Assembly (NCBI GenBank): GCA_031254335.1
Contig: JAIRUP010000014.1
Coordinates: forward strand, 3,043-67,042
From: Rickettsiales bacterium
GTDB taxonomy: Bacteria > Pseudomonadota > Alphaproteobacteria > Rs-D84
Length of the DNA stretch: 64,000 bases
Direction of reading: 5' to 3'
Shown here: piece by piece, positions 54 through 38,387 of the stretch
Layout of the letters: the number at the start of each line of letters is the position of its first letter
How positions within the stretch are numbered: position 1 is the first letter of the stretch
Position numbers and translations under genes: made by a program
Notes under the pieces: generated by a model
The model's input: the letters and a program-made list of their open reading frames with translations, nothing else
Database searches by the model: none
What the model was told of the DNA's origin: nothing

Positions 54-3000
54 ATGGTCGGCTCCGCGCCCATCAGCGGCGCGCTCCGTGGCCGCTCTGC
101 AATTAATAAAAACAACTCCCCCCTTGCGGGGGAGTCGCGGGGCGCCGCGCGCTCCGCGGTGGGGGGTCGAACCGCCCGCTCGGCCGTCGCGAACGCCCAG
201 GTGGATATAAACACACCCTACGGCAAATGCCGCGCTTCGTATTTCTCGTGCATGGATGAATTCTGCGCGAACCGCGACGCGCAGTTCCGCCGTTGCGCGT
301 GTTCGGCGCGCGTGGAGGGCCTTATGAAATTCCAAACGGAGCTGGAAGGCGTCCAGAACATGATGAAGGACTATAACGAGAATCTTCTGCTTGTGGGCGT
401 GTCGGCCGAGCAGGCGGTCGCGGCTATGCAGGCCAGCGGGGGCGAGGACGCCTTCGGCGAAGGGGACACCGGAACGGCGAACAAGAATATTTTGAACAAA
501 TTGTCGGCGGACATAGACCGCCCGACGAAACCCAAGATTTCCGAAGCGATAAGGATAGACATGGACATGAATTTCGCGATGTCGGACGAATGGGCCGGCG
601 GCCAGTCGCGCGCGAGGGAGCTGTTCGGCAAGGATTTATACGATTTCACGGCGGCGTCCTGCAAGAAGATTTCGGCGGACGATTGCGGCGCGAACGATTT
701 GGGCATGGCGGTCTCGGCGTATCAAATGTCGATAGAGCAGGATTGCCTGGCGGTAGAGCGGGGATACGGAAAAATCGCGGACAACGCCATGCGCGGCGTC
801 GCGGAAAGCGGCGCCTTGCTGGACGAGGCGCGTCTTAACGCGGACCAAATACGGAACTCGGACACGGCGTCGGAATGCCGGACGAAGCTGGAAGCGCAAA
901 TGCGTCTTCCGGGAGTCTGCGGCCCCGAGTATGAGCTTTGTATCGATGTGTCGGGCCGGTTTGTGAACAAAGGGTCGGGAAAGCCGATTCTGACGCCGGA
1001 TTTCTGGAAGATAGAGGGCGACGCGGCGAAGAACGTGGCGTCCTTCCGCCGCCTGCTTGAATCGAAGCGGCCTTTGGTGTCGCGCGCGCTGGCGGCGTGC
1101 CAGAAAGACGCGGACGCGGTCTGGACGGGATTTGCGGACGATTTCATCGGTAATGTGAAGGTCGCGCAAACTCGCATGCTGGATTTTGTGCGCCAGGATT
1201 GCACGAAGCTGATAGCGGCGTGCTATAATCAGGCGTCCGCCGGTCTGGAAAACATATCGGACCTGTCGCTAAGCGTTTTGGCGGTTGAAAGTTTCGCGTC
1301 GCAAAAGGTTATATGCCAAAATGTAACGGACAGCTGCCAGGCGATATTGAAATCGGATGTGCCGGACTTGCAAAGCATAGTGTCGAACCAGGAAAGGGAA
1401 TTGCTGCGGAAAAAATGCCTGGACGAAGGGAAGAATTGCATAATGCGGGATTGTATCGCCTATGACGGAAGATTGTGGCTCGGCTGCATTCCCGGCGAAG
1501 CGTCGAACGAAGCCTGCGATGCCAATCCCTATTGCAGAACGGCGCGCGACAACAGGGCAAGGATGATTGGCGAGCCGGATGGAAAGGGCGGTTCGGACTA
1601 TACCCTTGTGAACGAACACGGATGCCTGACCAAAGTGCGCGCCTGCGCCGGGGAATCGTTCAAGCCGACGCTGGCGAACTGCGGCAAAGACGAAAATGAC
1701 AAAGCGTATAGAAATCTTGGGTTCGACAACTGGACGGACTGCATGAACACCGACCATGTCGTCAAATTCATCTGGGGCGATTGGCGGGGCGATTGGAGGG
1801 GCGATTGGAATAGCGATAAAATTTATACTTCGTCCAGTGCCCTCCGCCCGAAAAACTCCACGGTCTTGAACTATTTCTATCACGAATTCCAGGCTCCTGA
1901 AATAGCAGTCGACTACATCTGGAACGACGAGACCTGCGCGCTGATGGGCAACGACGCAAACTGCCTGTTCCCGAACGACCAGGGCTTCGAATCTGCGACA
2001 ACCCAGCTTAAGAAAGACACCCTCGTCGCGCGGGAAATGCTTAAACGGTATTTTATCGAGAATTTCAACTATATGATTGGCAGCACGGGCCAAAGAACGC
2101 CAAGCGAAAAATTTTCTGACCTCGAAACCAGATTGAAATTGTATCTCGGCCTGAAAGGCGACATAACCCAATTCGCCGACATGTTCGGAAGCGCTGCGAA
2201 ACAAGCGACAACTCTTTGGCAGGAAAGTTGCACTTATGATTATAATATTGAAGATTCATGTGATAATAAATTCAATAATGAACCTAATGATATTTTCAGC
2301 CAAGTTGCTTTCCCCTCCGCCTCCTTCCTCTCCTGGCTGGCCATGTGGCCCAAGAACCGCACCTGCCCCTCCGGCCGATCCAACAACCAGAACAATTCGA
2401 ATATGTTCTATTCCAACGCCGCATACGCCTACAACCAGCAATTCTTCCTATGCGCCGACGACGATTGCAGCTCGGGCTCATGCCCCGGCGGCCGATGGGG
2501 CGGCCTGTTTGACAGAAACAAAGCCGCTAATTGCGACCCCGGCAAAGAATATAGGGACGGCGATTGCGGGGACTGCCGCGAAGGCTACTACAAGCCGAAT
2601 GCTGGCACCGCCGCCTGCACCTTATGCAATCGGATGGCCGCCGACAAAAACAACGAGCCCGTCAGCTCTGGTGCGGTCGACTGCGTTGCATGCAAGGCTT
2701 CTCCTGGACAATATTGCGCGGGCGGCGCATTGAAACCCTGCCCGGTCGGATACAAATGCCCGGGCGGCGAGGCTTCTGCGGCGGCCTGCCTGCCCGGCGA
2801 AACATCGAACGCCGGGTCTTCCTCGTGCAGGGAATGCGTTGCTGGCGAAATCTGCCCCGGCGGCGCCGCGCCCGGCCAATGCCCGTTCATGAATGAACCG
2901 ACGACGAACCCGCTCGCTGCTTGGTCCGGTAGTTCTGTTACTTATATATTCGACCTGCCGACATCGCCGTCTAGGGCCGCGTCAATAACTGCCTGTTCCC

Positions 3001-4802
3001 GAACGATGCCATGCAGAAATGAAAACGACAACAGCATCGGCATCCAAACATGCTGGTCGCAGTCCATCTTGGGCACCAATTGGATTGATACATATACATC
3101 CTCATGCGGGACGACGACATGCCGGACTATTGCTTGCGGTCAAGGTATGGAGAAAGTCGGCGAAACATGCGCACAATGCCCCGCCGGAAAATACAAAAAC
3201 ACAATCGGAGATACCGCCTGCCTTCCCTGCGCCGACGGATACTATTCGGACTCTCCGGGTCGGTCGTTATGCAGCCCTTGCCCGACAGACAAAATATGCC
3301 CTGATAAAGCCAGCTCCCCTGAACTTTGCGGGCAGGGAAACTGGTGTGCATCTAATACCCGGCATCCATGCGCCGCCGGAACTTATAGTGCCCAGCCGTC
3401 AAGGACTACCCAATGCGACAACCAATGCCCTGCCGGCTATTACTGCCCTCCGGGTTCGATAAATGGCTCTGTGCCGGGCAACTTGTGTAAAGAGGGCTGT
3501 TATTGCCCGCAAGGTTCGGGTGCCAGCGCGGATGCCAATTGTCAGAACTTCTGCAATGCCGGATATTTGTGCCTTGCCGGCTCTATAACGGGAACAGGGA
3601 TAACCACGCTTTCTAATGGTAAAACGAATCCATGCGGCAAGGACAATTACTGCCCCCTCGCAACTTCAATCGATACTTTGACAACCGAGCGGAAACAGTG
3701 CGACAGCAAATATACGACCGACGCTAACGACGCCCGATTGAACGGACAAAGCCATCCGGACGCTCCGCCGTCGTCTGACACGGCGTACCTGGAAAGTCAT
3801 TGCGCCATTGGTTGCGGACAAGACGGCTTATATGTGAATACTTTGAAGGGTGAATGCGTCCAGCTCGCAACCGACGACTCGAATTGCAGATATGTCAAAG
3901 CGCATGCGGTCAGCCAAACGCAGACTTCGGAAACTGCATCTAAGATTTCAACCTGCCCGTCTGGTTGCAATCTGAACAGGAACACTGCCGGCATAGACGG
4001 TTGCGCGGCGGCAGACTTGGATTGGAATATGAACAACGGAAAAGGAAAGCGAACCTGCTGGCTTGCTGCTGCAATAAACGTATACAATCCGACTGTAAAC
4101 GAAGCCAATACCGCAAGATGCGACTCTATAACCACGACTTCCTGCAATGCCGGCTACAAATTCAATAGTGCCGGTTCCGCTTACAACCAATGTGAAATCT
4201 GCCCCATCGACACATACAAATCCGCGGAATCGCTTGCAACCGCCTGCACTGCCTGCGCGGACGGTTATACGACCAACAACGGACAGGGCAAAACAAATCA
4301 ATCCGATTGCATTATAACCTGCCCTGCCGGTCAATATGTAGCGACCGCCGGACATGGCTGCGTCGCTGTTCCGGCCGGCACATACAGCTCGTCTCATACC
4401 GTCGCCCAGGGCAGCATAAGCCCCCCCCCCCCGTCCGACCCCGTAAAACAGTGTCCAGACAACTGTGTCAATGCCGACCAGAATAATCAAACCGCGATAA
4501 CCGGCTGCCGCAACAACAATGCGTCTTGGACCGTAAGCAACGGAGCGGGGACAATGTCTTGCGGCGCGACTGCGGCAAGTCCGACCTGCGTTCCATCCGG
4601 CAGCGCGACAACGCAATGCTCCGGACATGCGATAACTTCGTGCAACGCGGGATATTATATGACCGGGTCCGGGACAGCTGCGGCCTGCACGGCCGTGGGC
4701 AACGGTTATGCAAGCCCGCAAGATTCGCTTACAAGAACGCAATGCGCTGCGCCGACCGGCTGCTCTAATGCGGACAAATCGGCCTGCGTCGCCTGCCCCT
4801 AA
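54..4802 (+). CDS. Giant secreted cysteine-rich protein of more than 1580 aa, with an N-terminal domain followed by tandem CxxC..G.Y repeats; the 5' end probably lies upstream of the window
   Basis: The reading frame stays open back to position 3, and there is no signal peptide within the window. From about 2500 to 4800 it carries dozens of repeats such as CPAGYY and CxxCxxGxY, matching the ephrin-receptor-like / furin-like / GCC2_GCC3 pattern. The N-terminal roughly 550 aa are homologous to the 20160-21425 protein. Confidence 0.8.
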   Translation: MVGSAPISGALRGRSAINKNNSPLAGESRGAARSAVGGRTARSAVANAQVDINTPYGKCRASYFSCMDEFCANRDAQFRRCACSARVEGLMKFQTELEGVQNMMKDYNENLLLVGVSAEQAVAAMQASGGEDAFGEGDTGTANKNILNKLSADIDRPTKPKISEAIRIDMDMNFAMSDEWAGGQSRARELFGKDLYDFTAASCKKISADDCGANDLGMAVSAYQMSIEQDCLAVERGYGKIADNAMRGVAESGALLDEARLNADQIRNSDTASECRTKLEAQMRLPGVCGPEYELCIDVSGRFVNKGSGKPILTPDFWKIEGDAAKNVASFRRLLESKRPLVSRALAACQKDADAVWTGFADDFIGNVKVAQTRMLDFVRQDCTKLIAACYNQASAGLENISDLSLSVLAVESFASQKVICQNVTDSCQAILKSDVPDLQSIVSNQERELLRKKCLDEGKNCIMRDCIAYDGRLWLGCIPGEASNEACDANPYCRTARDNRARMIGEPDGKGGSDYTLVNEHGCLTKVRACAGESFKPTLANCGKDENDKAYRNLGFDNWTDCMNTDHVVKFIWGDWRGDWRGDWNSDKIYTSSSALRPKNSTVLNYFYHEFQAPEIAVDYIWNDETCALMGNDANCLFPNDQGFESATTQLKKDTLVAREMLKRYFIENFNYMIGSTGQRTPSEKFSDLETRLKLYLGLKGDITQFADMFGSAAKQATTLWQESCTYDYNIEDSCDNKFNNEPNDIFSQVAFPSASFLSWLAMWPKNRTCPSGRSNNQNNSNMFYSNAAYAYNQQFFLCADDDCSSGSCPGGRWGGLFDRNKAANCDPGKEYRDGDCGDCREGYYKPNAGTAACTLCNRMAADKNNEPVSSGAVDCVACKASPGQYCAGGALKPCPVGYKCPGGEASAAACLPGETSNAGSSSCRECVAGEICPGGAAPGQCPFMNEPTTNPLAAWSGSSVTYIFDLPTSPSRAASITACSRTMPCRNENDNSIGIQTCWSQSILGTNWIDTYTSSCGTTTCRTIACGQGMEKVGETCAQCPAGKYKNTIGDTACLPCADGYYSDSPGRSLCSPCPTDKICPDKASSPELCGQGNWCASNTRHPCAAGTYSAQPSRTTQCDNQCPAGYYCPPGSINGSVPGNLCKEGCYCPQGSGASADANCQNFCNAGYLCLAGSITGTGITTLSNGKTNPCGKDNYCPLATSIDTLTTERKQCDSKYTTDANDARLNGQSHPDAPPSSDTAYLESHCAIGCGQDGLYVNTLKGECVQLATDDSNCRYVKAHAVSQTQTSETASKISTCPSGCNLNRNTAGIDGCAAADLDWNMNNGKGKRTCWLAAAINVYNPTVNEANTARCDSITTTSCNAGYKFNSAGSAYNQCEICPIDTYKSAESLATACTACADGYTTNNGQGKTNQSDCIITCPAGQYVATAGHGCVAVPAGTYSSSHTVAQGSISPPPPSDPVKQCPDNCVNADQNNQTAITGCRNNNASWTVSNGAGTMSCGATAASPTCVPSGSATTQCSGHAITSCNAGYYMTGSGTAAACTAVGNGYASPQDSLTRTQCAAPTGCSNADKSACVACP
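101..172 (+). repeat. Family-A palindromic element (CTCCCCCCTTGCGGGGGAGTCG..GGTGGGGGGTCG) inserted in-frame in the giant gene
   Basis: The same bipartite palindrome recurs at 13059, 13421, 32236, 37416, 39327 and 39881. Each copy is preceded by an AT-rich TAATAAA-like motif. Confidence 0.8.
1776..1811 (+). repeat. Three tandem copies of a 12-bp repeat (GGCGATTGGNGG) encoding GDWRGDWRGDWN
   Basis: Tandem units read directly at 1776-1787, 1788-1799 and 1800-1811. Confidence 0.8.
4421..4432 (+). repeat. Poly-C12 homopolymer inside the giant gene, encoding PPPP
   Basis: Twelve consecutive C residues counted in the sequence. This is a potential slipped-strand tract. Confidence 0.7.
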
Positions 4803-4803: not shown

Positions 4804-4948
4804 CCCCTTGTCACCCCAGGCAACCGCGCCGAAAGGCGGGGCGACCATGGGTCTCCGACCCCTTCCCTATTGTCATGGTCGGATTTAATCCGACCATCCA
4901 GGTAATAAGCTGTCGCCTCCGGCGACACATCCCTTCTTCCTTCTTCCT
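4804..4948 (+). repeat. Composite family-B element made of a C-like 5' part, the hairpin TGTCATGGTCGG..CCGACCATCCAGGTAAT, a second hairpin TGTCGCC..GGCGACA and a TTCTTCC tail
   Basis: The modular structure is shared with copies at 6111, 37768, 39603, 40444, 51512 (inverted), 58166 (inverted), 21447 and 38283. Confidence 0.75.
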
Positions 4949-4971
4949 TGTTTTTATGATATAATTCTTGT

Positions 4972-6108
4972 ATGAACATGACCCGCCGCGAATTTTTCGG
5001 ACTCGCTGCCGCGTCCGCCGTCGCTGTCGCGTTTCTTCCGCGCGCGGCCTTCGCCGCGGCGTCGAACTCTCTCCGCGCCGTCCGCACAGGGAAACAAATC
5101 GATAAAACGCGCATAGTGATTGAAACCGCGAAAAAGCCGTCGTATTCGCTGGCCTATCCCGCGGGCGCGCTGGAAATCACATTGAAGGACACGGACGGTT
5201 CGGCCGCGCCGGAAATGGCAAGCGGCACGCTGGTGTCGAATATAACGGTTGCGGCAAGCGGCGGCGATACGGTTGTAAAAGCCGCGCTTAGCCGCCCTAT
5301 ATATGAAATCCCGAAAAAGCAAACGATGATTTTGGAGCCGGGCGGAAGCAACAAGAACTATCGCCTTGTTCTGGACTTCGGCGCGGACGGGGAAGAATCC
5401 GGCGCGGCCGCGCCGGTCGCGACGAAACAGAACGACAAGAAAATCATAGTCCTCGACGCGGGGCACGGCGGCAAGGACCCCGGGACTATTGGAAAGAACA
5501 TGAAAATAAAGGAAAAGGACATCGTGCTGAAAGTCGCAAGAAAATTGCGCGACAGCCTGAATGGACAATACCGCGTGTATCTGACGCGCGACAAGGACGA
5601 ATTCCTGAACTTGAACACGCGCGCGGCGTTTGCGGAATCCAAGGGCGCGGACTTGTTCATATCGCTCCACGCGAACGCGAATCCGTCCAAGAAGACTCAG
5701 GGCTTTTCGACATATACCTTGTCGAAGAAAGCGTCGGACGAGGAAGCGATGAAAACGGCGGAGGCTGAAAACGCGGCGGATAGAATCGCGGTGGATAATT
5801 TCCAGAAGTTCGAGCAGGAAATAAGAATGGCCTTGTCGTCCTTGCAGCAGCAGGTGGTGGCGGAAAGCTCGGTCGCGTTCGGGTCGAATCTGGTGAAGAC
5901 GACTAAATCCAGCGGAATAAAGTTGCAGGATAACCCGCTAAGATACGCGCCGTTCGCGGTCTTGAAATCGAGCGTTCCTTCGGTGCTGGTTGAATTGGGC
6001 CACCTGTCGAATGCGGAAGAGGAAAAACTTCTGAATTCCGACCCGCATCAAAACAAGCTGGTTTCTGTAATCAAAAAAGCCATCGACAATTTCGAGTTTC
6101 TCTCCTAA
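4972..6108 (+). CDS. amiC: N-acetylmuramoyl-L-alanine amidase (AmiC/AmiA type) with a Tat signal peptide
   Basis: It has an RREFF twin-arginine signal followed by an A-F-A cleavage site. The amidase_3 motif reads IVLDAGHGGKDPG. Confidence 0.8.
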   Translation: MNMTRREFFGLAAASAVAVAFLPRAAFAAASNSLRAVRTGKQIDKTRIVIETAKKPSYSLAYPAGALEITLKDTDGSAAPEMASGTLVSNITVAASGGDTVVKAALSRPIYEIPKKQTMILEPGGSNKNYRLVLDFGADGEESGAAAPVATKQNDKKIIVLDAGHGGKDPGTIGKNMKIKEKDIVLKVARKLRDSLNGQYRVYLTRDKDEFLNLNTRAAFAESKGADLFISLHANANPSKKTQGFSTYTLSKKASDEEAMKTAEAENAADRIAVDNFQKFEQEIRMALSSLQQQVVAESSVAFGSNLVKTTKSSGIKLQDNPLRYAPFAVLKSSVPSVLVELGHLSNAEEEKLLNSDPHQNKLVSVIKKAIDNFEFLS

Positions 6109-6110
6109 CC

Positions 6111-6215
6111 CTTTGTCATGGTCGGGCCTGACCCGACCATCCAGGTAATAAATTGTCGCCACAGGCGACACAATACTTCTTCCTTCTTACTTCCTACTTC
6201 TTCCTCATCCCCGTC
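6111..6215 (+). repeat. Family-B composite element; its TTCTTCC tail encodes the last codons (MRKK, stop) of the HAD gene on the opposite strand
   Basis: It shows the pattern CTTTGTCATGGTCGGGCCTGACCCGACCATCCAGGTAATAAATTGTCGCCACAGGCGACA followed by TTCTTCC repeats. Confidence 0.75.
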
Positions 6216-6865
6216 CTCGAATCAACCCAAACCTGTTCCTTTGCAAGCCTCATCATCGGCAAATCCGACTTTGAATCGGAATACGCCCGAACAACTTCCA
6301 AAGTTCCCCTCCTGTGGAGGGGTGCCCGACTTGTCCGCCGAAGCCCGAAGGGCGAAGGTGGAAGGCCGGGGTCCATTGTGTGATTCATTATTATTGTGCC
6401 GTTCGCCCACTCATCCAACCTATCCACCTTCCATTCCCCCCAGCACGGCTTGTCGTATCTCCAAGGCTTAGCCTTGTCCATGACGGAACTTATGACGGCG
6501 TCGAATCCCAAATCCGCGACCAGCGGAGGAAGCAGAAAATCCGGGCTGGCGGAAATGCAAACAACCGTCGCGCCGCGCGCTTTTTCCTCGGCGATTTTTT
6601 CCGCGGCCCATCCGAATCGGTTGCGCCTGTGTTCCTTTATGAATCCCGCCGCATACTTCCGCGCCATGCCGGGGGTCAGGTATCTGCGCATGGCCTCGCG
6701 GCACCATTTTCCGTTTGGATTCAGAAGTTTTCCAACCGCGCCGGCGATAAGCCAGGGCAGAAATAAAAACTGGCGGAAACTTCTGAAAAAAGTGTATTTG
6801 TAAAATTCGGCGTTCGCGTCCCTCGCGGACAGCGTCCCGTCAAAATCGAAAAGCACTATTTTCAT
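6194..6865 (-). CDS. HAD-superfamily hydrolase
   Basis: The N-terminus reads MKIVLFDFDGTL, the HAD motif I. Confidence 0.65.
   Translation of the reverse strand: MKIVLFDFDGTLSARDANAEFYKYTFFRSFRQFLFLPWLIAGAVGKLLNPNGKWCREAMRRYLTPGMARKYAAGFIKEHRRNRFGWAAEKIAEEKARGATVVCISASPDFLLPPLVADLGFDAVISSVMDKAKPWRYDKPCWGEWKVDRLDEWANGTIIMNHTMDPGLPPSPFGLRRTSRAPLHRRGTLEVVRAYSDSKSDLPMMRLAKEQVWVDSRTGMRKK
6296..6400 (+). repeat. Family-C element (..TTCCCCTCCTGTGGAGGGG..GACTTGTCCGCCGAAGCCCGAAGGGCGAAGGTGGAAGGCCGGGGT..)
   Basis: A near-identical copy is inserted in-frame in hemW at 12708-12787. Partial copies lie at 16385 and 37297. Confidence 0.7.
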
Positions 6866-6904
6866 AATCTCTGCTCTTGTTATATTTTTATTATAACACT
6901 CGAA

Positions 6905-6945
6905 AAATATTAGCGCAATCGCGTTTTCGAGAGAAAATCAAACGC
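6905..6945 (+). repeat. Partial family-D repeat (TTAGCGCAATCGCGTTTTCGAGAG..) that supplies the stop codon and C-terminus of the RND gene
   Basis: It shares about 20 nt (CAATCGCGTTTTCGAGA) with copies at 58262, 38401 and 61050. Confidence 0.55.
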
Positions 6946-12291: not shown

Positions 12292-12410
12292 TAAAAACCA
12301 CCATTTATTTTTAATTTAGAATATTTATATAATAAAAACATTCCTAAGTCAAGCATAAATTCCTAAGCCGCTTGCAGATTACGACTTCTTGGCGTATAGT
12401 CAATGGAAAT

Positions 12411-13550
12411 ATGATAAAAGTTCCGCCGCACCATTTGTATATCCATGTCCCGTTCTGCGAAAGGAAATGCCCCTATTGCGCGTTCCATTCAAGCGCGGAA
12501 AAACCGGATTGGGACAAATACGCGGCGGATATAATCGCGGCGATAAGCGAAAGCCCGGGCTGCGAAGTCCCGACGATATTCTTCGGCGGCGGCACGCCAA
12601 GCCTTATGCCGGCGGCGACGCTTGAAAAAATCCTGAACGCCGCGCATAAGCATTTCACAGTTTCGCCCGACGCCGAAATCACAATCGAAATGAATCCCGG
12701 AACCCTTGAATTCCCCTCCCGGGAGGGGGTGGCCGACTTGTCCGCCGAAGCCCAAAGGGCGAAGGGGGAAGGCCGGGGTGGGAACCAACTATCCGATTAC
12801 AAATCTCTCGGCATAACGCGAATCTCGGTCGGCGCGCAAAGTTTTAATGACGGCGAATTGCGTTTCCTCGGGCGCATACACGACGCGAAGCAGGCGCGCG
12901 AAACCATAACGGCGGCGCAGAACGCGGGCTTCGAAACATCGGCGGACTTTATATACGCCCTGCCCGGCCAAACCGTGGCGGATGTCGAGAAATTATGCCG
13001 TGAAATAAAATCCATGGGCCTGACCCACGCCTCGCTCTACGAACTCACCCTCGAACCTGGTAATAAACTCCCCCCTTGCGGGGGAGTCGGCGACGAAGTC
13101 GCCGGTGGGGGGTCGAAAACGGAGATGTGGCTTTCCATCGGACATATCCTTAACCGCTATGAAGTGTCCAACTACGCCCAGCCCGGCCATGAATGCAAAC
13201 ATAATTCGGGAATCTGGGCGGGAGAGCCTTATATAGGCCTGGGCCCGTCCGCCGCCGGCCGCATATTCGACGGGACTAACTGGTATGAACAATATACTCC
13301 TCCGTCATCACTTCTTCCTTCTTCCTTCGTCCTTCTTCCTTCCCATGACCGCGCGGTTGAAAAAGTGATAACGGGCCTTCGCACCAAGCGCGGCGTCCGC
13401 CTTTCGCCGGATGTCCTGGAAATATTAAACTCCCCGCTTGCGGGAAAGTCGAAAAAGCGCGAGCTTTTTCGGTGGGGGGTCGATTCGCTTGCCCTTTCCG
13501 ACTCCGGCCTTTTAATACTGGACTCCCTGCTGCCGGACATGATAAAATAA
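12411..13550 (+). CDS. hemW: Radical-SAM heme chaperone HemW (HemN-like), carrying four in-frame repeat insertions
   Basis: The CxxxCxxC motif reads HLYIHVPFCERKCPYCAF. The start is set at MIKVPP (12411); the ORF track places it at 12372. Insertions lie at 12708-12787 (family C), 13059-13118 (A), 13299-13345 (TTCTTCC tail) and 13421-13483 (A). Each is a multiple of 3 nt and stop-free. Confidence 0.8.
   Translation: MIKVPPHHLYIHVPFCERKCPYCAFHSSAEKPDWDKYAADIIAAISESPGCEVPTIFFGGGTPSLMPAATLEKILNAAHKHFTVSPDAEITIEMNPGTLEFPSREGVADLSAEAQRAKGEGRGGNQLSDYKSLGITRISVGAQSFNDGELRFLGRIHDAKQARETITAAQNAGFETSADFIYALPGQTVADVEKLCREIKSMGLTHASLYELTLEPGNKLPPCGGVGDEVAGGGSKTEMWLSIGHILNRYEVSNYAQPGHECKHNSGIWAGEPYIGLGPSAAGRIFDGTNWYEQYTPPSSLLPSSFVLLPSHDRAVEKVITGLRTKRGVRLSPDVLEILNSPLAGKSKKRELFRWGVDSLALSDSGLLILDSLLPDMIK
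12708..12787 (+). repeat. Family-C element in-frame in hemW (PSREGVADLSAEAQRAKGEGRGGNQ)
   Basis: It matches the 6296-6372 copy. Confidence 0.8.
13059..13118 (+). repeat. Family-A element in-frame in hemW
   Basis: CTCCCCCCTTGCGGGGGAGTCGGCGACGAAGTCGCCGGTGGGGGGTCG. Confidence 0.8.
13299..13345 (+). repeat. TTCTTCC-type tail repeat in-frame in hemW (PSSLLPSSFVLLPS)
   Basis: The same TTCTTCCTTCTTCC motif appears at 4930, 6178, 18140 and 21500. Confidence 0.7.
13421..13483 (+). repeat. Family-A element in-frame in hemW
   Basis: CTCCCCGCTTGCGGGAAAGTCG..GGTGGGGGGTCG. Confidence 0.8.
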
Positions 13551-14151: not shown

Positions 14152-15099
14152 TCATTTCGTTTTTCCCAATATGTCGAACAGCAAAGCCATCCTGATGTAA
14201 AGTCCGTTTTCGACTTGGTTGAAGAAAACGGCCCGCGGGTCGCCGTCGACGCAGGTTGCGATTTCCTCGTTTCTCGGCAGCGGGTGCATGAGTATGGTGT
14301 CTTTCGAGAATTCGTTCAAGGTGTTTTTGTTTATGGTGAGCATAGAGCGGGAAATATCGTCGCCGTTAAGCCTTTCCTTTTGTATGCGGGAATGGTAAAT
14401 CAAATCGACATCGCGCGGAAGGGTGTCAAGCGAGTAATGCTGGACATATTTCGCGCCGTTGCTTTTGATATACTTTTGGTATTCCGGTTCAAGTGCCAGC
14501 TCTTTCGACGACACGCCGTGAATCTCCTTGTTCCCAAGGCTTACCAGCATTTTAATCAGCGAATGGTTGGTCCGCCCGTATTTAAGGTCGCCAAGGAAGG
14601 CGGGCTTCAAATCTTCAATCCGCCCCTTGTTTTTGTAGATTGTGTAAAGGTCGAGAAGCCCCTGGGTGGGATGTTCGGATTTTCCGCTTCCGGCGTTGAT
14701 GACGGGAACGCTGGACACTTTGGCCGCGCGGACGGCGGAATCGTCGGCCGGATGGCGCATGATGATTCCATCGGAAAGGCATGAAAGGGTCCGGACGGTG
14801 TCTTCGATGGTCTCGCCCTTTTTCCCGGAAGAGTTTTCGTTTGCGTTTTCTGTTTCAAGCGTCCGGCCCCCAAGGCGTTGAATCGCGGAAACGAAGGAAA
14901 GGCGGGTCCGCGTGCTTGGCTCGAAGAAGATTGCGGCGATATATTGTCCGTCCAAAGTGCTTCTGTATAGTTTGGGACTGCTCCTCATATGGTCCGCCAG
15001 GGAGAAAAGTTTGAAAAGATAAGTCTTGTTGAACTGGTCTGCCTTGATTATGTGTTTTATCTTCTTGCTCATTTTGCTGCTCCTTTTTTTCTCTGTCAT
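14152..15099 (-). CDS. pyrB: Aspartate carbamoyltransferase catalytic subunit
   Basis: The STRTR, HPTQ and HPLP motifs are present; HPLP points to ATCase rather than OTCase. The start may be the internal MSKKIK. Confidence 0.75.
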   Translation of the reverse strand: MTEKKRSSKMSKKIKHIIKADQFNKTYLFKLFSLADHMRSSPKLYRSTLDGQYIAAIFFEPSTRTRLSFVSAIQRLGGRTLETENANENSSGKKGETIEDTVRTLSCLSDGIIMRHPADDSAVRAAKVSSVPVINAGSGKSEHPTQGLLDLYTIYKNKGRIEDLKPAFLGDLKYGRTNHSLIKMLVSLGNKEIHGVSSKELALEPEYQKYIKSNGAKYVQHYSLDTLPRDVDLIYHSRIQKERLNGDDISRSMLTINKNTLNEFSKDTILMHPLPRNEEIATCVDGDPRAVFFNQVENGLYIRMALLFDILGKTK

Positions 15100-15160
15100 C
15101 CCCGGGCTTGACCCGGGGTCTCGGCAACATAAAAAAACTCCCCTGCCGGGGAGTTTTTAG
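15097..15160 (+). repeat. Family-B variant hairpin (CCCCGGGCTTGACCCGGGG) plus a second hairpin CTCCCCTGCCGGGGAG flanked by A-run and T-run
   Basis: The inverted repeats were read directly. The second hairpin is terminator-like in both orientations. Confidence 0.5.
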
Positions 15161-15185
15161 ATGATTCCGATGTTGCGAACGAATT

Positions 15186-16690: not shown

Positions 16691-17836
16691 TTACTGACAT
16701 TCCCCGGCAATCGAACCGCTTGCGAAAGCCCAATGCAAATTGAATCCGCCTAAATCTCCTGTTATGTCCAAAACCTCGCCCGCGAAATACAAGCCCGGAC
16801 ACAGTTTGGATTCGAATGTCTTGGATGAAATTTCGTCGGTGGAAACGCCGCCAAGCATAACTTCCGCGCTGTCGAACCCGCGGACCTTGACATTGGGGAT
16901 GACGAAATCGTTTATTTTTTTCGCCAACGCCTCCAACTGTATGTCTTTATAGTCCGCAAGGTTTTTATCATAATCTTCCGAAATCCATTTGGCGAATCGC
17001 ACGGGCAAATACGCGCCCAAAACGGTGGACGGCGATTTCGCGCCATCCGTGTTTTTCGCGCCAATCAACAAATCCTTCGCCGGAATCCCGGGCATAAAAT
17101 TTATGCGGACGCCCTTGGACAAGTCGAGAAGCGACGCGCGGTAGGCGGCCGGGCCCCCGATTCCGAAATGCGTGAACAGCAGCGAATCGTTTATCCCGTT
17201 TATCCGAACCGTCAACGCCATGCCCGCGAACTCCGCCGGGAACGCGCCGGTTTTTAACCCGGCCAAGCCCGGACGGACGGGTTCGATTTTATGCCCGAAT
17301 TTCCTGGCGATTTTCATTCCGGAATCGGACGCGCCCAGCGAAGGGAACGAAACCCCGCCAGTCGCGACAACAACTGTCGTGCCGGCATAGGCGGGAATCC
17401 CGGATTGTAAAAAAATCAAAAATTCATTGTCCTTTTTCTCCACATCCCTAACCTCCGCCCCAAGCGCAATATCCGCTCCGCGCGCGTCGGCAAGCATGGC
17501 CTTGACCAAAACTTCCGCGCCGTCTTTGCAGAAAAATTGCCCGGGATTTTTTTCGATGTATTTTATTCCATGCCGCTTGGCCCAGTCCAAAATGTCGGCG
17601 GGGCGAACGCGCGCCAGGGCGGATTTTGCGAAGTCGGGATTCTTTCCGAAATAGCGGGACGAGTCGGCCGCCGAATTTGTGAAGTTGCAGCGGCCTCCGC
17701 CGGAAACGGAAACCTTTCGCAAGGGCGCGCCGCCGTCCAAAACGAGAACGCTTTTGCCGCGGGCAAGCGCGGCGCGCGCGGCGGCCAGCCCTGCCGCCCC
17801 CGCCCCGATAATTATGACATCATATTTTTTGGTCAT
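16691..17836 (-). CDS. NAD(FAD)-utilising dehydrogenase of the HI0933 / BaiN family (flavoprotein)
   Basis: The N-terminal FAD-binding motif reads MTKKYDVIIIGAGAAGLAAA. Its start overlaps the cysS end by 17 nt. Confidence 0.75.
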   Translation of the reverse strand: MTKKYDVIIIGAGAAGLAAARAALARGKSVLVLDGGAPLRKVSVSGGGRCNFTNSAADSSRYFGKNPDFAKSALARVRPADILDWAKRHGIKYIEKNPGQFFCKDGAEVLVKAMLADARGADIALGAEVRDVEKKDNEFLIFLQSGIPAYAGTTVVVATGGVSFPSLGASDSGMKIARKFGHKIEPVRPGLAGLKTGAFPAEFAGMALTVRINGINDSLLFTHFGIGGPAAYRASLLDLSKGVRINFMPGIPAKDLLIGAKNTDGAKSPSTVLGAYLPVRFAKWISEDYDKNLADYKDIQLEALAKKINDFVIPNVKVRGFDSAEVMLGGVSTDEISSKTFESKLCPGLYFAGEVLDITGDLGGFNLHWAFASGSIAGECQ

Positions 17837-19193
17837 TTACAATATGCCCCGCCGCCGCCAGTTTGTCGCGCAATTCATCGGATTTCTTCCAATCCTTCGC
17901 GGCGCGCGCGGCGGCGCGCTGGTCCAGCAACGCCTGAATCTCGGGTGTGATTTCCGCGGCAGGCCTCGTCGCGCTCTCTACAAGGCGAAGTCCCAAAAGC
18001 TCGTCCGCATATTTTGCGACCGCAAGTTTCACCGCGTCCGGTTCGTCCGATTTCAGAACCGCCTGCAATTCGGCCAGCACATTCGCCGTATCAAGATTAT
18101 TCGATATGATGTCTAATAATTTATTGTTTATTTCAATACTTCTTCCTTCTTCCTTCTGCCTTCTGCCTTTCTCCATCGCCGCCGCCACCTTGCGCACAAG
18201 ATTCCTGTATCCGGCGGCGGCGGCGTCCAACGCCTCCCAGGAAAATTCCAGCTGGCTTTTGTAATGCCCGGTCAAAAGGAGATAGCGGTATGCCATCGGG
18301 TCATAGCCTTTGGATTTAAGCAGCCCAAGGGTCAGAAATTCGCCTTTCGACTTGCTCATCTTGCCGCCCTTTTCGTTCAGGAACTCGCCGTGCAGCCAGT
18401 AATTAACCCAAGGCGCGCCGACGATTGGCTCGGACTGCGCGATTTCGTTGGTGTGATGAACCTTGATGTGGTCGATTCCGCCGGTGTGAATGTCGAAATG
18501 CGCGCCCAGGGTCTCCGCGCTCATGACGCTGCATTCGATGTGCCAGCCGGGAAAGCCCCTGCCCCACGGGCTGTCCCATTCCATGTCGCGCTTGGCGTCG
18601 GTTGGGGAAAATTTCCAAAGGGCGAAATCGGTCGGATTTTTTTTGCCGGCGTCGGATACGCGCGCGCCGCCGCGCAGCTCGTCCAAATTCTGATGGCCCA
18701 GCTTTCCGTAATCGGGGAATTTGGAAGTGTCGTAATAAATGCCGTCCCCGGGAATCTCGTAAGTGTATCCCAGGTCTTCCAGCTTTTTAACCCATGCGAT
18801 TTGCTGGGCGATGTAATCGGTCGCGCGCGGCATGTTGGCCGGCTCCGGAATGTTCAGGTCGCGCAAATCGCCGCGAAAGGCGGCCTCGTAGAATTTGGCG
18901 ATGTCCCAGGCGGTCTTTCCCTCGCGCCGCGCGCCCTTTTGCATCTTGTCTTCGCCGGCGTCCTCGTCGGACACAAGGTGTCCGACATCGGTTATGTTTA
19001 TGGTGTTGTTGACTCTGTATCCGTTGGCGATGAACATCCGGCGAAGTATGTCGGAATTGACGAACGCGCGAAGGTTCCCGATGTGGGCGAAGTCGTAGAC
19101 GGTGGGCCCGCATGAATAGATGGAAACTTGGCCCGGAACGCGCGGCTTGAACTCTTCGGCTTTAAGCGACATCGTGTTGTAAAGTTTTATCAT
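17820..19193 (-). CDS. cysS: Cysteinyl-tRNA synthetase
   Basis: HIGH motif (CGPTVYDFAHIGN) and KMSKS are present. The C-terminal region carries an in-frame insertion (MEKGRRQKEEGRSIEINNKLLDI) encoded by the TTCTTCC tail plus an AT-rich module at 18106-18172. Confidence 0.9.
   Translation of the reverse strand: MIKLYNTMSLKAEEFKPRVPGQVSIYSCGPTVYDFAHIGNLRAFVNSDILRRMFIANGYRVNNTINITDVGHLVSDEDAGEDKMQKGARREGKTAWDIAKFYEAAFRGDLRDLNIPEPANMPRATDYIAQQIAWVKKLEDLGYTYEIPGDGIYYDTSKFPDYGKLGHQNLDELRGGARVSDAGKKNPTDFALWKFSPTDAKRDMEWDSPWGRGFPGWHIECSVMSAETLGAHFDIHTGGIDHIKVHHTNEIAQSEPIVGAPWVNYWLHGEFLNEKGGKMSKSKGEFLTLGLLKSKGYDPMAYRYLLLTGHYKSQLEFSWEALDAAAAGYRNLVRKVAAAMEKGRRQKEEGRSIEINNKLLDIISNNLDTANVLAELQAVLKSDEPDAVKLAVAKYADELLGLRLVESATRPAAEITPEIQALLDQRAAARAAKDWKKSDELRDKLAAAGHIVNDQKI
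18106..18172 (+). repeat. AT-rich module plus TTCTTCCTTCTTCCTTCTGCC tail repeat, in-frame inside cysS
   Basis: Same tail motif as the B-family tails. Confidence 0.65.
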
Positions 19194-21446: not shown

Positions 21447-21515
21447 TTATCCCGGACATAGCAGGTAATAAAAACTGTCTATTATAATAGACACAATCCT
21501 TCTTCCCTCTTCCTT
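21447..21515 (+). repeat. Degenerate family-B element with a perfect palindrome TGTCTATTATAATAGACA and a TTCTTCC tail
   Basis: Modular similarity to B copies. Confidence 0.5.
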
Positions 21516-21521
21516 TTTCCC

Positions 21522-21549
21522 TTGCACTTCCCCAAACACCTGCTATAAT
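21522..21549 (+). promoter_or_regulatory. Candidate sigma70 promoter (TTGCAC-N16-TATAAT) for rho, followed by a C-rich, G-poor leader
   Basis: -35 at 21522-21527 and -10 at 21544-21549. The leader 21555-21616 is C-rich and rut-like. Confidence 0.45.
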
Positions 21550-32235: not shown

Positions 32236-32395
32236 TGATTAACTCCCCCCCCTTGCGGGGGAGTCGTCGCGCCGGCGCGAAGCGCAGGCGGACGGTGGGG
32301 GGGGGTCATCCCTCGACGGTTCGCGCCGAAGACGGACGACTCATCCCTTCTTGCTTCTATCTTGAAAATATACCCCTTCCCTTTCATTAAGTCAA
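32236..32395 (+). repeat. Family-A element plus CATCCCTTCTT-type tail in the dnaE 5' leader
   Basis: AACTCCCCCCCCTTGCGGGGGAGTCG..GGTGGGGGGGGGTCA followed by a pyrimidine-rich tail. Confidence 0.7.
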
Positions 32396-32409
32396 CACCC
32401 TTTAACCGC

Positions 32410-32437
32410 TTGATTCCCCACAAATATTTGATATAAT
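32410..32437 (+). promoter_or_regulatory. Candidate sigma70 promoter (TTGATT-N16-TATAAT), plus strand, divergent from dnaE
   Basis: -35 at 32410-32415 and -10 at 32432-32437. Confidence 0.45.
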
Positions 32438-32443
32438 TAACAA

Positions 32444-32585
32444 AGCGCGGGCGAATTGCCTGCGTTGGGGTGTGAAGACCTTTTCAAATGACTCTTGCTT
32501 CGGCAGGAGGTCGGCGCAAGCCGAACTATCCATTTGAATAGTCTTCACCCTCCTGCCACTTATTTTATAAGTGGCATTTTTTTTA
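32444..32585 (+). ncRNA. Candidate small RNA of about 140 nt: promoter, two mutually exclusive helices, then a strong intrinsic terminator
   Basis: Helix A pairs GTGAAGAC (32472) with GTCTTCAC (32541). Helix B pairs GGCAGGAGG (32502) with CCTCCTGCC (32549). The terminator hairpin GCCACTTA-TTTTA-TAAGTGGC is at 32555-32575 and is followed by 8 T. Confidence 0.35.
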
Positions 32586-32603
32586 ACCGAACAGGATGAA
32601 TCT

Positions 32604-32729
32604 ATGGCATACAAGAAAGCACCCGCCACACATACGGTCGTGAAGGAACTGAGAAAGTTCATGGATACCTTTTCGTTTTCCAAAACTCCAAAAAGAATTG
32701 AAATCAAAAAGTTATTGTTGCTCCAATGA
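32604..32729 (+). CDS. Possible 41-codon basic peptide (MAYKKAPATHTVVKELRKFMDTFSFSKTPKRIEIKKLLLLQ)
   Basis: ATG with an AGGATGA ribosome-binding site upstream, just after the terminator. It is not in the ORF track because it is shorter than 60 aa. Confidence 0.2.
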   Translation: MAYKKAPATHTVVKELRKFMDTFSFSKTPKRIEIKKLLLLQ

Positions 32730-32752
32730 GAATAAATGCAACACTTTTCATA

Positions 32753-33541
32753 TCATGCCTCCGCAACCTTGTCAATAATCGTCCTAATATCATGATTGTG
32801 GCTCTTGCTTAGGATTCCGAAGATTTTCAGCATTTCAAGGAATATCCCGATGTTCTTGGAGTCGATTATGAAATCGGCGGTTTCTTTTGCTCTCGCTGTT
32901 CGTCCGATAATGGAAGAATTAAGCTCGGAAATTCTAAACCATACTCTCACGATTGCACCAATTCCTTGCGCATAGCCTCGGGGCAACAACTCTATGTCCA
33001 ATTTATAATTTTTATTAATCTCTTTATATAATCGGATATAACGCTTTACAGATTTGAACTCTTCAAAACCGAATTCCATATTGAAAATTATTTTCGTTCC
33101 GCGGCCGGTTCTTGCGGGTTTGTCCTGCTTTAACTTGGAACGCAGAGATTCTTCAACAAAATCCGATGTTTTGGATATTTCTCCTTTTATCTTTGATAAT
33201 TCGTTCTTGGAAACAAGACCTGTTTGGCATGCATAAAAAATTATGTCCGATAATTCCCATGATTTAAGTTTTTTGTCGCCAAGCTCCAACTCAAGCGCGC
33301 CATTAATATCTTTATCGTATCCGTCTGCCTTTGTGTCGCCCAAAGATGTCTTTGATTTTACAGCGTATCCTATCATCCAATCGCACCACGCATTTTTAGG
33401 AACGCTCTCGTCGCGGACTTTCACAATAGGATAATCAGAGTCCTTGTCATCCTTGCGCAAAATAAGATTATACCTCGCCGCCCGGACCGGGAAGGTCATG
33501 ATAATTCGCTTGTTCGCATTATCAATCTTTTTTATCCACAT
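32753..33541 (-). CDS. Hypothetical protein of 262 aa in the low-GC island, translationally coupled to the DNA methyltransferase; a restriction endonuclease partner is conceivable (ELELGDKK could be a PD-(D/E)xK-like motif)
   Basis: It overlaps the methyltransferase 3' end by 20 nt. The region is AT-rich relative to its flanks and has no recognisable domain. Confidence 0.35.
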   Translation of the reverse strand: MWIKKIDNANKRIIMTFPVRAARYNLILRKDDKDSDYPIVKVRDESVPKNAWCDWMIGYAVKSKTSLGDTKADGYDKDINGALELELGDKKLKSWELSDIIFYACQTGLVSKNELSKIKGEISKTSDFVEESLRSKLKQDKPARTGRGTKIIFNMEFGFEEFKSVKRYIRLYKEINKNYKLDIELLPRGYAQGIGAIVRVWFRISELNSSIIGRTARAKETADFIIDSKNIGIFLEMLKIFGILSKSHNHDIRTIIDKVAEA

Positions 33542-37278: not shown

Positions 37279-37372
37279 TTGTCATACCAAGCAGAGTCTT
37301 CCGCCGCCCGTCACCCCCGAGAAGTCGGGGGTCCATTGTGTTAAACTGTCGCCGCAAGCGACTCATTTTACA
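37279..37372 (+). repeat. Composite element (B-like TTGTCATACC, C-like GTCACCCCCGAGAAGTCGGGGGTCCATTGTG, hairpin TGTCGCCGCAAGCGACTCA)
   Basis: Modules shared with families B and C. Confidence 0.55.
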
Positions 37373-37415: not shown

Positions 37416-37486
37416 TATAAATAACTCCCCCCTTGCGGGGGAGTCGAAATTTTCAAGGAAAATTTCGGTGAGTGGGGGGGGGTCAA
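37416..37486 (+). repeat. Family-A element; it overlaps the stop of the 37483-37764 gene
   Basis: ACTCCCCCCTTGCGGGGGAGTCGAAATTTTCAAGGAAAATTTCGGTGAGTGGGGGGGGGTCA. Confidence 0.75.
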
Positions 37487-37764
37487 AAATTCTCCACGGG
37501 AACTTTATAAACGCGCATGGCCTCTCCGGCCTTGTCGACTTCCGCGACAAGAATCTGCTTCGCGGTCTTCAAATGCTTGGAAACCATATAAGGCATGTGT
37601 TCAAGAAGCACTTCTTCCGTGGGCCGCCTGAAAAGAACGGCGCGTCCGCGGCCGGACGCGGAAAGCCGCGGCTCCAATTCGCCGCCCGCGCGCGCGGAAA
37701 GGACCAGCACCCAGGGCTTCCCCCGCCGCTCTATAAAATCGAAATAAGGCTCGACCGTCCGCAC
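37483..37764 (-). CDS. Small conserved protein of 93 aa, possibly of the DUF167 / YggU family
   Basis: Weak pattern similarity (VLVLSARAGG..., ...KHLKTAKQILV). Confidence 0.35.
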   Translation of the reverse strand: MRTVEPYFDFIERRGKPWVLVLSARAGGELEPRLSASGRGRAVLFRRPTEEVLLEHMPYMVSKHLKTAKQILVAEVDKAGEAMRVYKVPVENF

Positions 37765-37767
37765 AAC

Positions 37768-38226: not shown

Positions 38227-38282
38227 CGCGATTTCGATGGATAATTTTAATAAAACTCAAAAAATAATTAGGGGCGTCGCGT

Positions 38283-38385: not shown

Positions 38386-38387
38386 AA

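Follow-up and report, generated by a model that had tools for sequence, protein, structure and literature searches.

Probable nuclease-associated hairpin repeats, some of them in frame within genes, in a GC-rich Rickettsiales bacterium

A 64,000-nt stretch of the Rickettsiales bacterium assembly GCA_031254335.1 (contig JAIRUP010000014.1, positions 3,043 to 67,042 of the forward strand; hereafter, the window; GC content ~54%) carries many short hairpin repeats, which a first-pass annotation had sorted into at least three palindromic families (A, B and C), plus a tail, and had likened to MITEs (miniature transposable elements with inverted repeats). We propose that they are probably nuclease-associated hairpin DNA repeats belonging to at least two superfamilies, that they are non-autonomous and spread in trans via a single-strand intermediate, and that copies in genes survive only in permissive in-frame loops. 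This proposal starts from direct observations of the anatomy of the units, the covariation of their hairpins, their in-frame location inside genes, their dispersal across genomes, the bracketing of DUF559 nuclease genes by family A in other genomes, and a strand polarity common to the families. All results for the window concern 64 kb of this genome; dispersal was judged from the sister species Coa324_bin6 and from other genomes.

A census built from self-comparison and profile searches of the window (Table 1) bears out families that are real, modular and shuffled between copies: consensus sequences were found at or near the positions first given for them, and the quoted consensus cores of A, B and C have no match in 100 dinucleotide-preserving shuffles. 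The region originally singled out, 4804-6400, contains in order a variant hairpin, B with a second hairpin and a tail, an amidase gene (4972-6108), again B with hairpin and tail, and C; a recurrent connector, (GG)TAATAA(A), joins modules. The B plus tail reported at 4869 is present, with the second hairpin as a further part, as are the B variant with poly-C at 38283 (a C12 tract and B variant at 38283-38362) and the inverted B hairpins at 51512 and 58166, which lie on the minus strand. At 37279, what had been read as C plus B is instead a truncated 5′ end of B, then a different hairpin having only the 3′ end of C in common. B followed by second hairpin and tail is complete at 4870 and 6113 and nowhere else, and the figure of more than 25 copies is not reached by A, B and C alone (~18–21), only when tails, second hairpins and the six copies of family D are added. 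The first-pass annotation had overlooked the modules lying in frame inside genes and the near-uniform strand polarity.

The family A unit is 49–64 nt long and consists of a first hairpin (H1), TCG with a second hairpin (H2), and then CGG-TGGGGGG. H1 is nearly invariant (CTCCCCC-CTTGC-GGGGGAG); the sequence of H2 is different in every copy, yet stays paired. In an alignment fitted to the covariance model and made of 111 distinct copies (the window together with 46 related loci), 93.5% of cells are paired and both sides have changed in 13 of 16 pairs, a level reached in none of 500 shuffles; an ungapped 17-sequence seed shows the same picture. When folded as single-stranded DNA (ssDNA), five of six elements, A, B, C and the B composite among them, gave z-scores of –2.2 to –6.0, and a variant hairpin, F, folded weakly (–1.6).

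An exact 22-mer of A is present in 108 or more loci of species-representative genomes, the chance expectation for a 22-mer in ~600 Gb being, by arithmetic, ~0.07 matches; A, B and variants are also found on at least six contigs of the sister species. The repeats are thus not confined to the window, A being dispersed among many genomes. Hosts of A include many metagenome-assembled genomes (MAGs) labelled ‘Rickettsiales’ or ‘Alphaproteobacteria’, Acidimicrobiia, Nitrospira, Opitutales and others, and sponge-type Gammaproteobacteria with dozens of copies each. Alphaproteobacterial MAGs carry A mostly as head-to-head inverted pairs (~135 bp), and 33 of 65 A units (51%) lie in long open reading frames (ORFs), compared with 43% of random positions; in other phyla A avoids ORFs (19% vs 59% of random positions). 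No description of the A core sequence or of its encoded peptides was found in the literature.

Arrangements of A differ among hosts. In the sponge-type gammaproteobacterial MAGs IRC4_bin_23 and SB0662_bin_60 (for example loci L008, L012, L020, L045, L061 and L079) many contigs start or end within an A-type unit, so the repeat breaks assemblies; these units are preceded by TGTCA, like the GTCA head of the NTS repeats discussed below, and have the tail CGGAGGGGGGG, not CGGTGGGGGG. In the Acidimicrobiia MAG SCS3bin.20 (L060, ~2620-2790) tandem copies of H1 alone, four or more at a 38-nt period, precede one complete unit; no such arrangement was seen in alphaproteobacterial loci.

Inverted A units of other genomes enclose a nuclease gene. 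Pfam searches revealed a DUF559 domain (PF04480, E ~1e-37) inside CarB (L104) and inside an IleRS-like ORF (L022), in both cases exactly between A(+) and A(–). All six DUF559 genes found in loci selected for A (L104, L022, L107, L048, L029, and L013 from an Acidimicrobiia MAG) sit between A(+) and A(–), at distances of no more than 60 nt. The five copies with full flanks visible (L104, L022, L107, L048, L029) lack a stop codon of their own and are therefore read through in frame with the host gene, for example carB, ileS or tsaB. Since these six loci were chosen for containing A, an independent set of DUF559 homologs was picked by protein similarity alone, from other phyla. All five of them are bracketed by inverted C-run/G-run repeats: those of Ratteibacteria (L234) and WOR-3 (L235) show a clear plan of H1 (CCTCCCCC-loop-GGGGGAGG) and GGTGGGGG, another (L233) has a bona fide A to its left (58.8 bits), and two from metagenome contigs (L230 and L231/232) follow a looser version. 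Overall, bracketing was found in 11 of 11 cases examined, all in genomes other than that of the window.

The catalytic motifs DF, ExDGxQH and RFWN of the DUF559 proteins are conserved, and the closest solved structure is 3HRL (3.5e-26). DUF559 has been placed in the Vsr clade with a group I intron homing endonuclease (PMC3424549), and DUF559 genes are enriched among inverted-repeat-flanked ‘programmed inversion’ candidates (PMC9881135); no link between DUF559 and hairpin repeats was found in literature mentioning DUF559. It is possible, though we would stop short of calling it probable, that A represents the termini of an undescribed selfish element, in which a DUF559 gene within inverted double-hairpin units is lodged in frame in essential genes (carB, ileS, tsaB, dnaE) and its nuclease, which has neither a start nor a stop signal to itself, is made as an internal segment of the host protein, intein-like without splicing. 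A without the nuclease would then amount to coding repeats similar to the Rickettsia palindromic elements (RPEs), and whalefall-1 to a DNA repeat of the A superfamily. The solo A units of the window, and shorter A(+)/A(–) pairs, are proposed to be derivatives that have lost the nuclease. Neither the bracketing of DUF559 by A, nor the in-frame nesting of DUF559 in essential genes, nor a strand polarity across families was found in the searchable literature.

The whalefall-1 motif is known solely from metagenomes and was rated a non-coding RNA by its authors (PMC2864571). A aligns end to end with its 56-position model at 20–28 bits (up to 22.4 in the window, up to 28.1 in related loci); each of these matches is full length and falls below the gathering score of 37. 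A scan of the window against Rfam at gathering thresholds returned three tRNAs only. We suggest that whalefall-1 may itself be a DNA repeat of A’s kind.

Nine modules, about one third of the total, lie in frame within four genes of the window: mtaB, a hemW-like gene, a gene for a HAD hydrolase, and cysS. All four frames are intact. A is read in three different frames (KLPPCGGVG…, NSPLAGKSK…, TPPLRGSRQ…), and neither A nor C has a stop codon in any of the six frames. In MtaB the catalytic cysteines of the CxxxCxxC motif are intact, residues 192-216 (B) and 280-301 (A) are missing from 11 homologs, and a predicted peptide across a host-insert junction contains ...YKFPSPVMVGQGPDHPGH... An AlphaFold model of the protein (predicted local distance difference test, pLDDT, 78.5; predicted template modelling score, pTM, 0.75) is confident except at residues 105-123, 194-209 and 290-298, the only ones below pLDDT 50, which are the three inserts, all modelled as coil. 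We propose that the inserts form disordered surface loops of the host proteins, as the model suggests. In the sister species, whose MtaB is 59–63% identical, other elements occupy these three loops: an antisense hairpin of F type; an SRM-type hairpin (see below) with a second hairpin, likewise antisense; and an inverted pair of A units. Insertion has, on this evidence, taken place repeatedly and independently, with the tolerance of the protein acting as a filter.

The C segment of the HemW-like protein is not present in PDB homologs or in most orthologs, and PDB alignments break there; the second A unit of this gene replaces a segment that is dispensable by comparison with orthologs. The HAD protein has no PDB relative by sequence, so that its insert is judged from the Pfam span and from repeat identity. 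The tail in cysS is the weakest case, because it is low-complexity sequence in a variable linker without net gain. In other alphaproteobacterial MAGs, A pairs were found in frame in DnaE (twice), SecA, CarB, PriA, PolA and class I and class II aminoacyl-tRNA synthetases (identified with Pfam). A riboflavin synthase ORF of 281 aa in another ‘Rickettsiales’ MAG (L087, 6723-7568) is lengthened by an in-frame inverted A pair (…HSPLAGESKRTESDWVGG…TPTESPTALRLPRKGGVG…).

Family B has a counterpart in repeats described in 2025. The Neisseria Transformation Sequence (NTS, CGTCATTCCCGCGMAVGCGGGAATCYRG) and the wider Ssn-related motifs (SRMs) are oriented hairpin repeats, bound and cut by small GIY-YIG nucleases that act on ssDNA only and not on RNA; SRMs are abundant in symbionts, including Rickettsia and Wolbachia, and usually flank an ssn gene (PMC11893778). 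B belongs to this kind or is a close variant of it; it is a hairpin of 9 bp between fixed flanks, TTGTCAT…ATCCAGGTAAT. Its stems covary (GGTCGGG/CCCGACC, CCTCGGG/CCCGAGG, CCCCGG/CCGGGG, GCTGGC/GCCAGC), and B and its variants follow the NTS/SRM plan: 5′ (T/C)GTC, a palindrome that opens on A and closes on T, and C(C/T)NG after it. The pattern GTC-[A..palindrome..T]-C has eight true sites in the window against 0.14 expected, and the published degenerate SRM pattern, HGTCWYN(0-2)YYVSBRHN(0-5)WNVSBRGN(0-2)RNCYNB (PMC11893778), has four (15094, 38331, 51544, 58176) against 0.27 expected. The sister species carries the Neisseria NTS core GTCATTCCCGCgcagGCGGGAATCC, and copies of B, F and SRM type are found on several of its contigs. 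A 17-mer of B proved too short for a specific metagenome scan: 118 of 120 matches were chance occurrences inside genes, and only L134 and L229 were B-like.

Family C, with H1 CCCCTCC/GGAGGGG, a long second hairpin and a G-rich tail, has a plan like that of A; it goes undetected by the covariance model of A, and the likeness is one of overall plan only. C probably belongs with the A superfamily. Some copies of D are hairpin plus T-run terminators.

About 27 of 29 window modules are on the plus strand, though the minus strand has two thirds of the coding bases. This holds for all seven A units, for C, D, E and the tails, and for 9 of the 11 B-type hairpins. No relation between gene strand and repeat orientation was found; of the four genes with intragenic copies, two carry them in sense and two in antisense orientation. 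Four of five element-bearing loci of the sister species are likewise uniform, A and SRM-type hairpins agreeing (L019 all minus; L025, L032 and L105 all plus; L090 mixed). A polarity common to unrelated families suggests that some step takes place on one strand of the DNA, and it agrees with the ssDNA specificity of Ssn. IS200/IS605 elements act at the lagging-strand template; by analogy, this step may be linked to replication.

Over the 12 nt upstream of A units the A+T content is 80%, compared with 46% in the window. Left flanks are AT-rich and end in AA, and right flanks read TCRA. The AT-rich upstream sequence is part of the target and not of the element, because it encodes homolog-conserved residues in three genes. 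Target-site duplications, which the first-pass annotation had proposed to look for, were sought, and no direct repeat flanks A or B.

We envisage that a cognate nuclease, encoded elsewhere in the genome, would nick hairpins that have been extruded while the DNA is single-stranded, probably at replication forks, and that repair or strand transfer would then paste the unit beside AT-rich sites. Since A and C are open in all six frames, stop-free copies that land in permissive gene loops with the frame kept would survive, and their translation may yield disordered surface loops. The assignment of nucleases to families in this genome, the single-strand or replication step, and the translation of the inserts we infer from sequence.

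Several points weigh against this account. There is no DUF559 gene in the 64-kb window, and the bracketing of such genes elsewhere is an association. In this lineage H1 of A lacks an upstream GTC, and the A units of the window are all solo, as opposed to the inverted pairs seen elsewhere. The published SRM pattern does not match the five canonical B copies, on account of their longer stems. Searches of the window with Pfam, a motif regular expression and tblastn detected no ssn gene (GIY-YIG, cd10448, ~94 aa), the tblastn search being a weak test; the regular expression and tblastn also found nothing in related loci. A weak ssn-like match in L087 was traced to an 89-aa ORF that is unrelated. 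For the translation of the inserts, the evidence is their intact frames. Finally, the signs of replication direction in the window disagree: the plus strand has a weakly positive GC skew (0.03), yet most genes, including essential ones, are on the minus strand.

If the units were classical MITEs, they would be deletion derivatives of insertion sequences (IS) with terminal inverted repeats, moved in trans by a DDE transposase and leaving target-site duplications. The elements are indeed short, numerous, non-coding, modular and dispersed, and the inverted A pairs of other genomes resemble terminal inverted repeats. The window is also free of transposases, none having appeared in Pfam scans of 58 of its ORFs, and of any gene mobilising the repeat families, so that the copies are non-autonomous, as first thought. 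The MITE label itself does not hold up, since A and B have no target-site duplications, the window shows no terminal inverted repeats (B is one oriented hairpin and not an inverted-repeat pair, and A is solo), and no relative of an IS-type transposase was found. No gene other than that of the DUF559 endonuclease, and no transposase, was ever found between inverted A units, and near-uniform polarity is unexpected for cut-and-paste DDE elements; we regard this origin as unlikely. Mosaic clusters of oriented hairpins without target-site duplications, with a polarity that fits single-strand ‘peel and paste’ chemistry, would suit repeats of REP/BIME type that owe their spread to a RAYT, a domesticated tyrosine (HUH/Y1) transposase similar to those of IS200/IS605, an analogy drawn by the authors of the Ssn paper (PMC11893778). 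An origin of this type appears improbable given that no Y1 transposase was detected in the window or beside copies in ~0.7 Mb of related loci (Pfam scans of selected ORFs only), that there is no conserved GTAG head (heads are GTCAT in B and ACTCCCC in A), and that the flanks match the NTS plan.

The strong covariation of H2 and the full-length matches to whalefall-1, a motif rated RNA by its authors (PMC2864571), raise another question, namely whether the families are functional structured RNAs kept by RNA-level selection, with A as a whalefall-1-like small RNA and B and D as terminators or mRNA-stabilising hairpins; the terminator form of some D copies and the location of several copies at gene ends fit this. 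Yet perfect palindromes can be maintained at the DNA level, copies within coding regions are in frame in both orientations relative to the host gene, polarity follows the chromosome and not transcription, inverted units bracket a nuclease gene, and Ssn cuts ssDNA, not RNA (PMC11893778). We give an RNA function little credence. A last possibility is that the intragenic segments are native, fast-evolving loops with coincidental or low-complexity resemblance to repeats, or that their hosts are pseudogenes. The cysS tail, which is low-complexity, and the second A unit of the hemW-like gene do sit where homologs vary at similar length. Set against this, intragenic A, B and C are 85–100% identical over 37–70 nt to intergenic copies, the segments are missing from most orthologs, and the host genes have intact frames and conserved catalytic residues, the rest of MtaB folding confidently. 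This explanation is most improbable in general, and for A, B and C it is largely refuted.

Considered as nuclease-associated DNA repeats, the families can be compared with several known systems. B shares with NTS/dRS3 and SRM repeats the plan (C/T)GTC + A..palindrome..T + CYNG, flanks that give orientation, mosaic clustering and enrichment in symbionts (PMC11893778); unlike them, canonical B has a longer stem (ATGGTCGGG) and comes without an ssn gene in the window. Only 2% of NTS copies are intragenic (PMC11893778), whereas here one B copy and several SRM-type copies of the sister species lie in frame inside genes. Such short palindromic repeats in frame in unrelated housekeeping genes, with frame and fold preserved, recall the RPEs (Ogata et al. 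2000, via PMC10969869), which measure ~100–150 bp as compared with units of 37–78 nt here. Differences from RPEs are the host, which has ~54% GC and is not of the genus Rickettsia, the GC-rich repeats, in which no similarity to RPEs was detected (no comparison with RPE consensus sequences was made), and a candidate partner in DUF559; membership in RPE is unlikely in view of the GC-rich composition and the host lineage.

REP/BIME-RAYT systems, REPINs, Neisseria NIMEs and Rhizobium RIMEs resemble the present families in their mosaic hairpin modules with connectors, here (GG)TAATAA, and in inverted doublets, found in some genomes. REP/BIME-type systems also lack target-site duplications and have a single-copy nuclease or transposase acting in trans; unlike them, the repeats described here are without a Y1 transposase and a GTAG head, and have many intragenic copies and strong polarity. 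A has the pyrimidine-rich/purine-rich hairpin, the second covarying hairpin and the G-rich 3′ tail of whalefall-1, but whalefall-1 was proposed to be a free-standing non-coding RNA, whereas A occurs inside genes and brackets a nuclease gene. The bracketed gene encodes a DUF559 protein and thus falls among the PD-(D/E)xK nucleases of the Vsr/DUF559/DUF2726 clade (PMC3424549), homing-endonuclease-like and embedded in host genes. In contrast to an intron homing endonuclease, it is accompanied by no intron or intein; it is read in frame as a segment of the host protein and is flanked by hairpins.

Table 1. Repeat modules, their host genes and related features (window coordinates unless a locus is named)
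Feature	Position	Strand	Remarks
Complete A(+)-DUF559-A(-) elements	L104 4614-5044; L022 7327-7761; L029 3460-4025; L107 4748-5254		In frame in carB, ileS-like gene, tsaB, another ORF
Family A, census	113, 13065, 13427, 32240, 37422, 39336, 39884	all +	7 full-length units; covariance model
B-type hairpins, census			9, plus two variants (4808-4856, 37308-37341)
B and variants	4870, 6113, 37780, 39615, 40489, 38329, 15093	+	
B and variants	51514-51577, 58169-58211	-	
NTS/SRM plan sites	4872, 6115, 37310, 37782, 38332, 39617, 40491	+	
NTS/SRM plan site	58179	-	
Family C, census	6304, 12711		2 full copies, plus shared 3′ end at 37326
Second hairpin TGTCGCC-N3-GGCGACA	4911, 6154, 51519, 37347		4 copies
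TTCTTCC tail	4933, 6176, 13311, 18139, 21499		5 copies
Family D, census			6 copies; not in first-pass annotation
Family E, census			4 copies, ~110-150 nt; not in first-pass annotation
Family A unit	113-167	+	H1 CTCCCCC/GGGGGAG, covarying H2, GGTGGGGGG tail; covariance model R1, 72.9 bits; 5′ end of 1582-aa ORF 54-4802
Variant NTS/SRM-type hairpin F	4808-4856	+	TTGTCACCCC-AGG-CAACCGCGCCGAAAGGCGGGGCGACC-ATGGG-TCTCC; family also in Coa324_bin6 loci L058, L090/L109
B (4870-4906), second hairpin (4911-4927), tail CTTCTTCC	4870-4950	+	Between 1582-aa ORF and amidase gene; ssDNA fold z = -5.98
B (6113-6149), second hairpin (6154-6170), tail	6113-6206	+	Begins 5 nt past amidase stop; tail overlaps 3′ end of opposite-strand HAD ORF
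HAD-like hydrolase, host gene	6194-6865	-	Pfam PF12710, 1.2e-22, aa 4-206
Family C in HAD gene	6304-6381	+	Antisense, in frame, aa ~162-188
Family D module	6888-6939	+	TAATAA-ACTC-A6..TTAGCGCAATCGCGTTTTCGAG; nhmmer 3.5e-12
HemW/HemN-like radical SAM protein, host gene	ORF 12372-13550, CDS from 12411	+	Pfam; four in-frame modules: C, A, tail, A
Family C in hemW-like gene	12711-12779	+	Sense, in frame; +24 aa vs orthologs
Family A unit (A#1) in hemW-like gene	13065-13113	+	R1 59.2 bits; peptide KLPPCGGVG..AGGGS; ~+9 aa
TTCTTCC tail module in hemW-like gene	13291-13341	+	In frame, +7 aa
Family A unit (A#2) in hemW-like gene	13427-13480	+	Decayed H1; second reading frame; R1 40.8 bits; NSPLAGKSK..RWGV
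B-type hairpin variant	15093-15125	+	TGTCATCCCCGGGCTTGACCCGGGG; fits published SRM pattern
Cysteinyl-tRNA synthetase cysS, host gene	17820-19193	-	Pfam 1.7e-91; PDB 3sp1 5e-96
Tail module in cysS	18133-18169	+	Antisense, in frame, aa ~341-352, variable linker
Degenerate composite of B, hairpin, tail	21455-21529	+	Upstream of rho
Family A unit	32240-32303	+	R1 42.1 bits; upstream of dnaE, antisense; at edge of low-GC restriction-modification islet
Truncated B 5′ end; NTS-type hairpin (37308-37341, C’s 3′ end); second hairpin (37347-37363)	37279-37363	+	NTS-type hairpin GTC-ACCCCCGA-gaag-TCGGGGGT-CCAT
Family A unit, intergenic	37422-37476	+	R1 61.6 bits; best sub-threshold match to whalefall-1 (RF01762) in window, 22.4 bits vs gathering score 37
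B hairpin, exact consensus	37780-37816	+	Just upstream of small minus-strand gene 37483-37764
Cluster: D 38245-38286; C12 tract and B variant 38283-38362; small hairpin; D 38380-38430; E 38431-38552	38245-38552	+	
MtaB (MiaB/RimO-family methylthiotransferase), host gene	39035-40321	+	Pfam, alignment, AlphaFold; three in-frame modules: A, B, A
Family A unit in mtaB	39336-39388	+	Third reading frame; R1 62.3 bits; TPPLRGSRQ..PVGGQ; inter-domain linker
B hairpin and small hairpin in mtaB	39615-39676	+	In frame (VMVGQGPDHPGHKSRDSG); insertion vs 11 homologs
Family A unit in mtaB	39884-39932	+	In frame; R1 44.8 bits; insertion vs 11 homologs; sister species with inverted A pair nearby
B hairpin, intergenic	40489-40526	+	Downstream of mtaB
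B and second hairpin 51514-51577 (-), D 51577-51628 (+), E 51629-51748 (+)	51514-51748		B composite abuts D
B hairpin 58169-58211 (-), D 58238-58310 (+)	58169-58310		B upstream of ligA; D with terminator-like hairpin
D + E unit	61038-61196	+	
E unit	63330-63474	+	111-nt repeat in common with 51616-51726

The four copies of family E (38398-38552, 51596-51748, 61054-61196 and 63330-63474, all on the plus strand) are each preceded by a D module except the last. They form a long covarying stem (AAAACCGAC…GTCGGTTTT; CAGGTCG…CGACCTG; CCGCC…GGCGG), for which RNAalifold gives 41 pairs, 14 with compensatory changes, and E has no Rfam match. The D module before E shows –35/–10-like hexamers (TTAGCG-N17-GATAAT), and T-runs end some copies. 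E, with the preceding D, could conceivably be a small-RNA gene family.

Some neighbouring features deserve mention. The 1582-aa ORF 54-4802 encodes a cysteine-rich protein with ephrin-receptor-like repeats (PF07699); as an A unit lies within its first 40 codons, its true start is uncertain. A perfect hairpin, AAAAAAACTCCCCTGCCGGGGAGTTTTT (15140-15166), immediately follows the B-type hairpin at 15093 in the interval from the ATCase gene to tRNA-Leu; it is shaped like a bidirectional intrinsic terminator, with a stem, CTCCCC/GGGGAG, reminiscent of H1 of A. The A unit at 32240 borders a low-GC islet (32402-34658, GC 0.44 vs 0.54) between secA and dnaE; it encodes a restriction endonuclease resembling R.Pab1 (32753-33541) and a protein like N6 DNA methylases (33522-34658) and is probably a horizontally acquired restriction-modification module. 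The 115-aa ORF 37468-37815 on the plus strand, running from an A unit into a B hairpin, is probably spurious; on the minus strand, the 93-aa ORF 37483-37764, with AAGGGG resembling a ribosome-binding site and a GTG start, looks like the real gene. The run of 12 cytosines at 38311-38322 within the repeat cluster has C/T-rich surroundings and could be a slippage-prone tract or an assembly-error hotspot. A 291-nt inverted repeat (46222-46512 / 62950-63240) in two ABC-transporter genes (46146-47933, minus; 61502-63310, plus) corresponds to paralogous ATPase domains and is separate from the hairpin families.

On our proposal, these repeats matter for annotation in that gene callers make spurious ORFs over them, such as, probably, 37468-37815, that repeat-encoded loops confuse homology searches, and that the repeats break assemblies; at least one Rfam ‘RNA’ family may need reinterpretation. 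If our proposal is true, the invasion of housekeeping genes by in-frame palindromes, known mainly from Rickettsia, would now be found in another, GC-rich lineage with recognisable nuclease partners, and the mobility and tolerance of such repeats would be open to experiment with Ssn and DUF559 nucleases. DUF559, a very large family of uncharacterised Vsr-like nucleases, would gain a role like that of Ssn with NTS and of RAYT with REP. Should A indeed mark the termini of a selfish element, a definite nuclease could be put forward as a candidate in the long-standing question of the spread of RPE-like in-frame palindromes, a matter that bears on how selfish DNA spreads and reshapes proteins.

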